A stretch of 64,000 nucleotides of DNA from the NCBI RefSeq assembly GCF_003334785.1, contig NZ_QOWV01000003.1; one strand, written 5' to 3'. Below, in pieces: positions 62,940-64,000 of this stretch. A model generated the notes under the pieces. It was not told where the DNA came from, made no database searches, and worked only from the letters and a program-made list of their open reading frames with translations. Numbering within the stretch: position 1 is the stretch's first letter; each line of letters starts with the position of its first letter. This DNA is from Escherichia coli (lineage in GTDB: Bacteria > Pseudomonadota > Gammaproteobacteria > Enterobacterales > Enterobacteriaceae). The position numbers and the translations under genes are program-made.

Positions 62940-64000
62940 AGCATTATCTCCGCGTCGCCTCTGGACGGCTCCCTTGTTGATAGCAATAAAGTAAACCGGA
63001 CTGGGCCATGAAGCTACTGCTAATCAGACAGTCATCCGTAAGCAAAAGCTGCGATATGCGGTTCAAACGCGCTGTAAGGCTCTCTGGCGAGTGTTTTAAA
63101 GAAGGTAGTCGAAATCATGGTGCAGAATTCGCGGCGCTCTCATAGAGTGACTGGCGAAGCCAGTTGAAACAAGCGTAGCGGAGTTCGAGCAATCAATGAG
63201 AAATCTGGGCGAGCTTTAAGCTTTACCGCGCTTCTTAACTTTTGAGTCTGTTTGGCTCTATAAGGATAAGCCTGCCGCCGTGGAAATTTTCGGACGCTAT
63301 GCCTGAGAGGGGCGCTTCCAAACCTAGGGCATCCACTTTTTCGCTCCCAACTTATCTGGCTGCATTTACACCGCGAACACGTTGAACGTTAGCAGCTTCT
63401 GGTTCGTATTTGGTTGTTACGCAGGAGAGGTAAAAACGGCAGGTTTACTTTTGACGGCAACGCCATAAGACACCAAACAGCAGAGAAGTGTAATTGTTAA
63501 AAATGTTAAAACATAACTTGTTCTTTAAGATGTAAACCCTTCCTCGGGGGGGAAGCCGGACATATCAACCATAAGGCCATCTGAGAAGATAGCCTGTAGG
63601 TTGCTCGGTTCCCCTTGCCAGATGAAGATCAAGTCTTCCTCGTGGTGTGACGACCTTTCTTGAAAGATGCATTATGCGCAAAAGAAGCTACTCAAGAATC
63701 CGCCGATAGCTACTTTCACCCTCTGCTTGGCTGCATCAAACGCTTGCGCGCCCTACCTACCACAATCAACGTTACGCAGAGTTCCCATCCTGACGTCTTC
63801 CGCTAAACAGCGGTGATCTCCACCTACCCGGACCGGTTTACCGCATGAGGTAGGTGTCAGGAGAGAAGCTAGCACACCATCATTTTAAAGAAAAGTCATA
63901 TATATCATATGGCTGCGTTCATATTCTGAACGCAGTTATCGATGTTAACCTAAAGGTATGAGAACACTGTCGTTTTTCATATACAAAGGGTGCTTCGGCT

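Follow-up and report, generated by a model that had tools for sequence, protein, structure and literature searches.

Here, we describe a conserved, unannotated non-coding module in a common Escherichia coli island, namely the one inserted at the tRNA-Leu(CAA) gene leuX. It lies in a window of 64,000 nucleotides (nt), our term for the whole stretch of DNA that was analyzed (contig NZ_QOWV01000003.1 of assembly GCF_003334785.1), where a gap of about 1 kb between a NIPSNAP-family gene and a DUF1643 gene fills most of the final part (62940-64000). The most conserved part of this gap is a core of ~370 base pairs (bp; 63490-63860, putatively read from the minus strand), comprising an AT-rich tail (63490-63535), hairpin 1 (63539-63555, CTTCC-TCGGGGG-GGAAG), and a hairpin-rich body. 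The core lacks coding capacity, is conserved among islands, and occupies the slot that in sister islands is filled by the gene of a predicted replication initiator or relaxase. Our tentative reading, to which we give somewhat less than an even chance, is that it encodes a ~340-nt structured RNA on the minus strand; its transcription, strand, ends, and function are what we infer from the sequence. The subject is not an exotic one, as ~1 in 9 complete E. coli genomes carry the unannotated block, including those of Nissle 1917 (a probiotic), ATCC 25922 (a reference strain), enteroaggregative E. coli (EAEC) 042, and O157:H7.

Conservation and distribution of the core

The gap is present in 584-596 of the 5426 complete E. 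coli genomes, and none of the records listed has an annotated feature in it. Over its last 1.1 kb, the window shows 100% identity to E. coli Nissle 1917, in which the gap corresponds to NZ_CP022686.1, 3323099-3324103, and likewise to ATCC 25922, 042, and numerous further genomes. The gap of O157:H7 is 95.7% identical overall. Homologs of the core are also found in Citrobacter (in an island at tRNA-Gly), Enterobacter vonholyi, an Enterobacteriaceae metagenome-assembled genome, a 5.4-Mb NCBI genome, and several metagenome contigs. Two metagenome contigs carry the core without DUF1643.

Across these homologs, the core diverges from the window by 0.3-4.3%. Its surroundings change much faster. The adjacent linker (63417-63489) is 3-35% diverged between islands and, measured over 63420-63489, exceeds the core in 10 of 10 comparisons. 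The synonymous divergence (dS) of DUF1643 amounts to 0.03-0.50 and is above that of the core in five of five comparisons, and the recombinase gene farther along the island has diverged by ~9-23% (77-91% identity). The sharpest step is seen in locus L025, where 35% divergence at 63420-63489 is followed by 1.9% in the core. The core is thus conserved beyond neutral expectation, with a recent origin as the alternative reading of the same figures.

Searches of reference collections gave the core no relatives of known kind. Under gathering thresholds, Rfam 15 matches nothing in the gap, and a search relaxed to E<=10 gave two chance matches only (16 and 15 bits, against gathering scores of 100 and 35), of which GlsR5 at 63040-63130 is the sole one in the gap. 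The phage collection gave no match, a pattern scan of IMG/VR for hairpin 2 (described below) found none, and the plasmid collection matched the neighboring block B only, leaving the core with chance matches at E ~5. A miniature inverted-repeat element or insertion sequence (IS) remnant was considered and rejected, as there is one copy per genome (597 places in 596 genomes) and there are no terminal repeats.

The core in the slot of an initiator-like gene

In four sister islands (L002, L004, L007, and L026), the position of the core is taken by a minus-strand gene of 337-338 amino acids (aa). It is located between DUF1643 and segment B (63175-63416 in the window), a non-coding block whose conservation extends to all examined members of the island family and to related plasmid copies. 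The slot protein gave no Pfam, PHROG, NCBIfam, or PADLOC match in the routine scans, and Pfam Rep_trans hits the 338-aa family weakly, in 1-2 of 41 members; its predicted fold best matches Rep_trans initiators (rolling-circle initiators or MOBT relaxases). The family has members in Enterobacteriaceae, Pseudomonas, and Burkholderia (40-50% identity). The sister islands with this gene, here called Rep-type, lack the core, and the island of the window lacks the Rep_trans-like gene. Among E. coli genomes, 39-47 have the 338-aa gene (13 on plasmid records) versus 596 with the core. In L003, which represents a third type of island, the slot holds a 306-aa phrog_7003 gene.

The correspondence between the two alleles includes their edges. 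On the minus strand of the window, directly beyond the core, there is a promoter-like stretch (63861-63912) composed of ATGATA (63908-63903), a 15-nt spacer, and TAAAAT (63887-63882), followed by GTGTGCTA (63877-63870), with a putative start at ~63875. Upstream of the slot gene in L002, after the DUF1643 stop and hairpin 3, one finds TTGATA, 16 nt, TAAAAT, GTGTGCTA, and a ~95-nt leader. All of L002, L004, and L007 carry GTGTGCTA, and the -10 element differs in L004 and L007. This upstream stretch of the Rep gene aligns with window positions 63908-63870, after which the similarity fades over ~35 nt. Downstream of the slot gene, a hairpin and an AT-rich stretch are positionally aligned with hairpin 1 and 63490-63535. 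Because the stretches on both sides of the slot gene align with the edges of the core, a putative minus-strand transcript can be delimited from ~63875 to ~63535-63490. Hairpin 3 (63913-63935, CTGCGTTCA-TATTC-TGAACGCAG, with a perfect stem of 9 bp) directly follows the DUF1643 stop and is identical in the Rep-type islands (L002, L004, and L007) and in most core-type islands.

In the reading that we favor, the core would be transcribed leftward over this interval as a hairpin-rich non-coding RNA of ~340-390 nt, which would have taken the initiator gene's place and have been kept by selection. A plausible role would be that of a regulatory or decoy RNA acting on the replication or mobilization of the island family, with the island retaining B as a candidate cis site. 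One can go further and propose that the core represents a new class of ~340-nt structured RNA in the Rep_trans-type initiator slot of defense-carrying islands, acting in trans on replication or mobilization, for example as a sponge, primer, or silencer of the initiator system in relatives with which the island competes. We consider this extension distinctly unlikely; if true, it would explain why the RNA allele has largely displaced the protein allele in E. coli.

Structure and covariation

The preliminary description of this DNA, made from the letters of the window, had pointed to three strong hairpins in the gap and had named a structured non-coding RNA as a candidate. The hairpins do exist, with coordinates that were off by 0-2 nt, and the RNA candidate stays viable for ~370 of the 1005 bp, although it has no Rfam match and weak covariation support; the conservation in related islands that had been asked for was found. 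Hairpin 2 (63821-63856, minus strand) has the form CACCTACC...GGTAGGTG, with an 8-bp stem and a 20-nt loop. Perfect hairpins with a stem of at least 8 bp number two (three stem/loop registers as counted by script), compared with a mean of 0.36 registers in shuffled sequences, 4% of which reach the observed count. Folding of 63420-63960 yields z-scores of -2.9 (plus strand) and -2.3 (minus strand). Within the core there are three copies of the 7-mer ACCTACC (63755-63761, 63822-63828, and, inverted, 63849-63855). Two of these copies form hairpin 2, and the one at 63755-63761 is a possible alternative partner, so that mutually exclusive structures can be drawn. The loop of hairpin 2 also shows 87% complementarity over 15 nt to the region upstream of NIPSNAP (63827-63841 with 62991-63005), which we judged to be chance.

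The alignment of eight sequences that served as input to RNAalifold yields ~145 predicted pairs on either strand, and pairs with double changes number 2-3 in total. One is the closing pair (63804/63809) of the hairpin CCGCT-AAAC-AGCGG (63800-63813, minus strand), which changes from T:A to A:T in L023 and L029, with L025 showing A.A as an intermediate state. In hairpin 3, L023 has the outer pair changed from C:G to G:C and one inner pair broken. A one-sided change in hairpin 2 remains G.U on the minus strand, and a GCAA tetraloop on that strand becomes GUAA, which is still GNRA, in L012. By hand count over the local hairpins, one-sided transitions are kept as G.U on the minus strand only at 63582, 63595, 63783, 63802, 63849, 63863, and 63865 and are kept paired on the plus strand only at 63614, 63693, and 63915. 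When scored on minimum free energy (MFE) structures of single sequences, which are uninformed by variation, pairing survives 10 of 24 stem changes for the minus strand, compared with 6 of 28 for the plus strand. Taken together, these results give some support to conserved hairpins, with a mild lean to the minus strand, and do not amount to proof.

Critically speaking, several observations weigh against an RNA. As many as 122 of the 145 predicted minus-strand pairs are invariant, and the 7:3 strand asymmetry of the one-sided transitions is not significant. Covariation is minimal and similar on both strands: the observed value is reached in 12 of 500 shuffles for the minus and 1 of 500 for the plus strand, and the tool itself warns that related sequences can yield such values without any structure. 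A long-range helix (63781-63793 with 63856-63867) is lost in L023 and L029. In the consensus scan, a sigma-70 promoter was missing from the region and a terminator from the gap (the sole terminator match lies at 62504-62533), the -35 element of the window is poor (ATGATA with a 15-nt spacer), and hairpin 1 is followed by only a weak U-tract. Furthermore, the high-identity tracts reach variable distances into DUF1643 (to 64118 in L008, to ~64292 in L009, and to 64032 in L025). Finally, the core starts and ends where the replaced module does, so that its high identity may be owed to a recent origin and to recombinational spread instead of to selection.

Recent origin and cis-acting function as alternatives

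This last point is the basis of the view that the core is filler without a function. In one recent illegitimate event, the Rep_trans-like gene would have been swapped for foreign non-coding DNA. The Rep-less and more stable type of island would then have spread, recombination would have carried the segment from one diverged island to another, and the segment would look conserved only because it is young. We regard this as possible rather than probable. It accounts well for the coincidence of the conserved block with the replaced module, and the lineage-specific lengths of the tracts into DUF1643 are those of recombination tracts. The Rep-like family is old and broad, and the core is confined to Enterobacteriaceae and unclassified metagenome contigs at about >=96% identity. 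In addition, 8 of 15 stem substitutions preserve pairing (minus strand, 63485-63855, our own count), which is near a rough neutral estimate of ~1/3. Less favorable to the filler view is that two tRNA sites and several genera are represented among the islands with the core, whose flanks are 10-35% diverged right up to its left edge. Homologous recombination is unlikely to have set the junction there repeatedly, given that the L025 flank is only ~65% identical. Core divergence also roughly follows flank divergence across lineages (the L025 linker being an outlier), two hairpins show double compensatory changes, hairpin content lies above that of shuffled sequences, and the core outnumbers the Rep-type allele by more than 10:1 in E. 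coli.

Alternatively, the core could act as DNA in cis. It could be an origin, either of replication or of transfer, or a signal for single-strand initiation during copying or mobilization of the excised island, or else the adjacent serine recombinase or helix-turn-helix (HTH) regulator could bind to it. In such a scenario, which we find rather unlikely, a Rep-less island would be handled in trans by Rep-encoding relatives or plasmids, and Rep-type copies on 13 E. coli plasmid records could indeed act in this way. Conservation at the nucleotide level, several hairpins, an AT-rich stretch, and the three ACCTACC copies, one of them inverted, all suit a cis site. So does the replacement of a Rep_trans-like initiator in an island that retains B and hairpin 3, as Rep-type islands do. 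Strand-specific changes that are compatible with G.T pairing, moreover, suit single-stranded DNA as well as RNA. On the other hand, a family-wide site would be expected in Rep-type islands too, from which the core is absent. Rep_trans/MOBT nick sites consist of a conserved CT'AA motif in the loop of a GC-rich inverted repeat (PMC9371924). A conserved repeat of this kind was not found in the gap (perfect stems of at least 5 bp), and the only core hairpin bearing CTAA (63800-63813) is without the motif in L023 and in L025. When the backbone of the island was scanned for the CT'AA hairpin, a single candidate came up, which is not conserved and lies outside the gap (window-equivalent 64549-64569). 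The cognate initiator or relaxase is absent from the window's island and present in sister islands. Similarity to plasmids and phages does not exceed chance, no iterons were found, and the search for direct or inverted repeats that could represent iterons or terminal repeats returned chance-sized matches only. Since B and hairpin 3 are common to the Rep-type and the core-type islands, they are better candidates than the core for the cis sites of the family.

To the other readings together we assign only a small probability. Two of these concern genes and are treated below.

Absence of coding capacity

According to the preliminary description, the final kilobase contained no open reading frame (ORF) of 60 aa or more, which it called unusual. 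Recomputation confirmed that no complete ORF of at least 60 aa overlaps 62940-64000; the longest has 49 aa (63667-63816, plus strand). The gene-free kilobase itself had to be trimmed to 62940-63944 (1005 bp), as 63945-64000 is the 3' end of DUF1643. The gap is the sole such stretch in the window, and stop-free stretches this short occur in only 2 of 630 frames of 1005 bp, both overlapping the gap. Because 14% of dinucleotide shuffles likewise have no ORF of at least 60 aa, the missing ORFs mark the region as non-coding, not as improbable.

That the region hides a decayed gene or at least one small-protein gene is very improbable. Several ORFs of 35-49 aa exist in it, gene callers placed ORFs here in other assemblies (P0001-P0004), and the RefSeq locus tags skip one number in the gap in both Nissle (L001, CIW80_RS16530/RS16540) and O157:H7 8368 (L009, A4C39_RS24905/RS24895). 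The skipped number may mean that a feature was once called in the gap and later withdrawn. However, a six-frame phmmer search of 63400-63950 against 1.84 billion representative proteins returned four hits, all of them same-locus ORF calls from other assemblies (P0001-P0004 themselves), and a six-frame search of 62940-63420 against the 5.8-billion set returned nothing. A tblastn search of the gap with the slot and cargo genes of sister islands gave no remnant either, and the decayed gene proposed earlier is hence rejected. Small-protein genes fare no better in the conserved core. Among 11 homologous sequences, 1-nt indels occur at six core sites (the G-run at 63546-63552, ~63600, ~63611, ~63656, ~63816, and ~63823), and every core ORF of 35-49 aa is broken by them. 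There is no third-position bias (2 of 8 substitutions in the 49-aa ORF by hand count).

Block B has no coding signature either, as its substitutions are spread evenly over the codon positions in all six frames. A 13-codon ORF within it (63365 to 63324, minus strand; MQPDKLGAxKWxS*) shows many third-position differences among relatives, which would speak for a small gene; its ATG, though, is missing in L002 and L015, and in L012 a TGG to TAG change gives a premature stop.

A long regulatory leader, the remaining suggestion of the preliminary description, is equally improbable. For NIPSNAP such a leader would at least be in the right place, as this gene lies on the minus strand and starts at 62939, so that the gap is upstream of it, and the two occur together in most E. 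coli copies. The core nevertheless occurs without NIPSNAP in L012, L013, L023, L025, and L029, and relatives have cargo inserted between segments A (see below) and B. A leader for a gene beyond the window is rejected, since the minus-strand DUF1643 gene reads into the gap and not away from it, so that the gap is located 3' of this gene.

Comparison with known systems and significance

By analogy, the element would be most like the replication or mobilization module of a rolling-circle plasmid or an integrative mobilizable element minus its initiator. With Rep_trans initiators and MOBT relaxase modules (pT181 RepC/RepD, ICESt3 RelSt3, and ICEBs1 NicK), the family shares the predicted fold of the sister-island slot protein, an adjoining conserved non-coding block, and residence in an integrase-bearing, tRNA-inserted element. 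It differs from them in that the window's island has no such gene, no conserved CT'AA hairpin was found, the family is proteobacterial and unannotated, and the core has no counterpart there.

Plasmid replication can be controlled by RNA: the countertranscripts of pT181 act on the rep leader, and ColE1 uses RNA I and RNA II. These RNAs resemble the core in size and placement only, being hairpin-rich transcripts of a few hundred nt at a replication module, as is predicted for the core; the three ACCTACC copies, which would permit alternative pairings, are a further likeness. Unlike these RNAs, the core has no sequence or Rfam match (RNAI included) and no rep gene in cis to control. Non-autonomous elements offer a second comparison. 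Islands of the SGI1/MGI type carry oriT mimics and rely on helpers, and rolling-circle plasmids have single-strand origins. The island of the window would be similar to non-autonomous mobilizable islands in that the initiator is lost and conserved blocks (B and hairpin 3) are common with initiator-encoding relatives. The difference is that the core is absent from those relatives and is therefore not the shared cis site.

Pathogenic E. coli also express small RNAs (sRNAs) from islands and prophages, such as the Hfq-type Esr41 in OI-43 and Esr055 in OI-93 (PMC8565820). Like these, the core is non-coding, belongs to an island that varies among strains, and is found in O157:H7 as well. Esr41, however, has ~70 nt and ends in a GC-rich terminator with a poly-U tail (PMC8565820), whereas the core is ~5 times longer and without a clear terminator. 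That sRNA review lists no sRNA for the leuX island and mentions neither OI-172 nor leuX. Literature searches on DUF1643, DUF6538, leuX small RNAs, Esr41, SpLE5, and leuX defense hotspots turned up no account of the island family and none of an RNA from this locus.

If the core proves to be an RNA or a cis site standing in for a rolling-circle initiator, it would show how such islands turn non-autonomous and are controlled, and a species as well studied as E. coli would gain a new family of RNA or DNA elements. With the 338-aa protein of the sister islands, the Rep_trans/MOBT proteins would have a proteobacterial branch that had gone unrecognized. Should the core be only young filler, a clean annotation of the island's anatomy remains.

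Mosaic anatomy of the gap

The gap is a mosaic of several backbone and cassette pieces, which the preliminary description had missed. From left to right, it starts with the upstream flank of NIPSNAP (62940-63063, minus strand), which represents the promoter and 5' untranslated region (UTR) side and was inherited with that gene. Plasmid locus L005 matches this flank at 92.9% identity up to 63035 and has a different downstream neighborhood. Next comes segment A (63064-63171), a second, diverged copy of the post-integrase sequence; its counterpart in the tRNA-Gly islands L002-L004 and in Citrobacter L013 is the sequence directly after the integrase gene. The first copy, A' (62505-62605), is the conserved sequence after the integrase stop, as identified by BLAST to sister islands. 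A' and A are diverged direct copies, both ~75-85% identical to the same post-integrase segment of relatives, and they bracket NIPSNAP (62607-62939, minus strand, 110 aa), which is therefore a cargo cassette between them. In other strains, extra cargo is found after the first A copy (DUF2971; IS1203 with DUF4160).

Relatives place cargo between A and B as well, an example being DUF4468 and a 190-aa gene in L004. A module of 1584 bp, spanning part of A, DUF4468, the 190-aa gene, and part of B, is 97.6% identical between an E. coli chromosomal tRNA-Gly island (L004:3486-5068) and a 6.7-kb ColE1-like, Rop-encoding Klebsiella plasmid (L006:540-2123), which shows exchange between these islands and small plasmids. 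A ColE1-type RNA-primed origin was tried as an explanation of the core and discarded: there is no Rfam RNAI match, the ColE1-like L006 shares the A-cargo-B module only and not the core, and no plasmid matches the core.

Within B, the 9-mer CTATAAGGA (63258-63266) is invariant in all relatives. Homology to L004 and L025 on the one hand and to L007 on the other ends exactly at its left edge, with two different left-hand sequences, and CTATAAGGA hence has the appearance of a junction used repeatedly, be it for recombination or for cargo. It is preceded by a small hairpin, GAGKC-TGWTT-GSCTC, in which T.G changes to G:C between variants. The consensus fold of B is weak (-15.6 kcal/mol), and convincing covariation was not found in it.

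The leuX island and its neighbors

The preliminary description had placed the gap just inside an island, and rightly so. The attachment site is the tRNA-Leu(CAA) gene leuX (60389-60473, plus strand; ARAGORN and Rfam), followed by a tyrosine integrase and then by the NIPSNAP gene. The last 28 nt of leuX recur ~7.3 kb downstream, beyond the window (window-equivalent 67763-67790), in the Nissle locus L001, and this direct repeat delimits a small island of ~7.3 kb. The integrase gene (60564-62474, plus strand) encodes 636 aa in the annotation and 650 aa if translation starts at an upstream TTG, and a relative carries the Pfam domains DUF6538 and Phage_integrase. Downstream of it, the terminator scan places its terminator-like hairpin (62504-62533) in A'. 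The DUF1643 gene on the far side of the gap (63945-64411, minus strand) is frameshifted near codon 7 in this strain, according to the RefSeq annotation of the identical Nissle locus and tblastn.

In Nissle, the gap is followed by DUF1643 (minus strand), a 186-aa invertase/resolvase-like serine recombinase (plus strand), a 281-aa DUF4062 protein, a 164-aa membrane protein, and a 154-aa HTH protein. The intergenic region between DUF1643 and the recombinase, which is kept in all islands, contains CGTTTTCTGGCA three times (L001:7584-7595, 7641-7652, and 7671-7684; window-equivalent ~64483-64583). These repeats are probably binding sites for the recombinase or a regulator.

The two cargo sites of the island hold variable, partly defense-like genes. 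The 281-aa DUF4062 protein (L001:8279-9124, plus strand) matches the PADLOC candidate defense family PDC-S60, and the same cargo sites in related islands harbor Shedu (SduA_C), AIPR, HNH, and kinase genes. Beyond the right repeat of the island, an AbiJ-like protein (L001:11422-12246, plus strand) matches PDC-S32.

Two of the related sequences carry unexpected labels. The contig L011 (JAIJJM010000048.1), placed in a 'Collinsella sp.' bin, agrees with the E. coli leuX island at 99.97% identity, and L014 (CACSKA010000005.1), labeled 'Chryseobacterium sp. 18061', matches the Citrobacter contig L013 here, with the block B segment and the BLAST hits identical. Both are probably misbinned or mislabeled. 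Elsewhere in the window there are ordinary RNA elements of the core genome that are unrelated to the gap, namely an Mg riboswitch, Ysr276, and ES239 (36527-36642, 54222-54416, and 7395-7517, respectively), as well as four equally unrelated naRNA4 matches (20032-20110, 26273-26350, 53217-53292, and 53313-53388).

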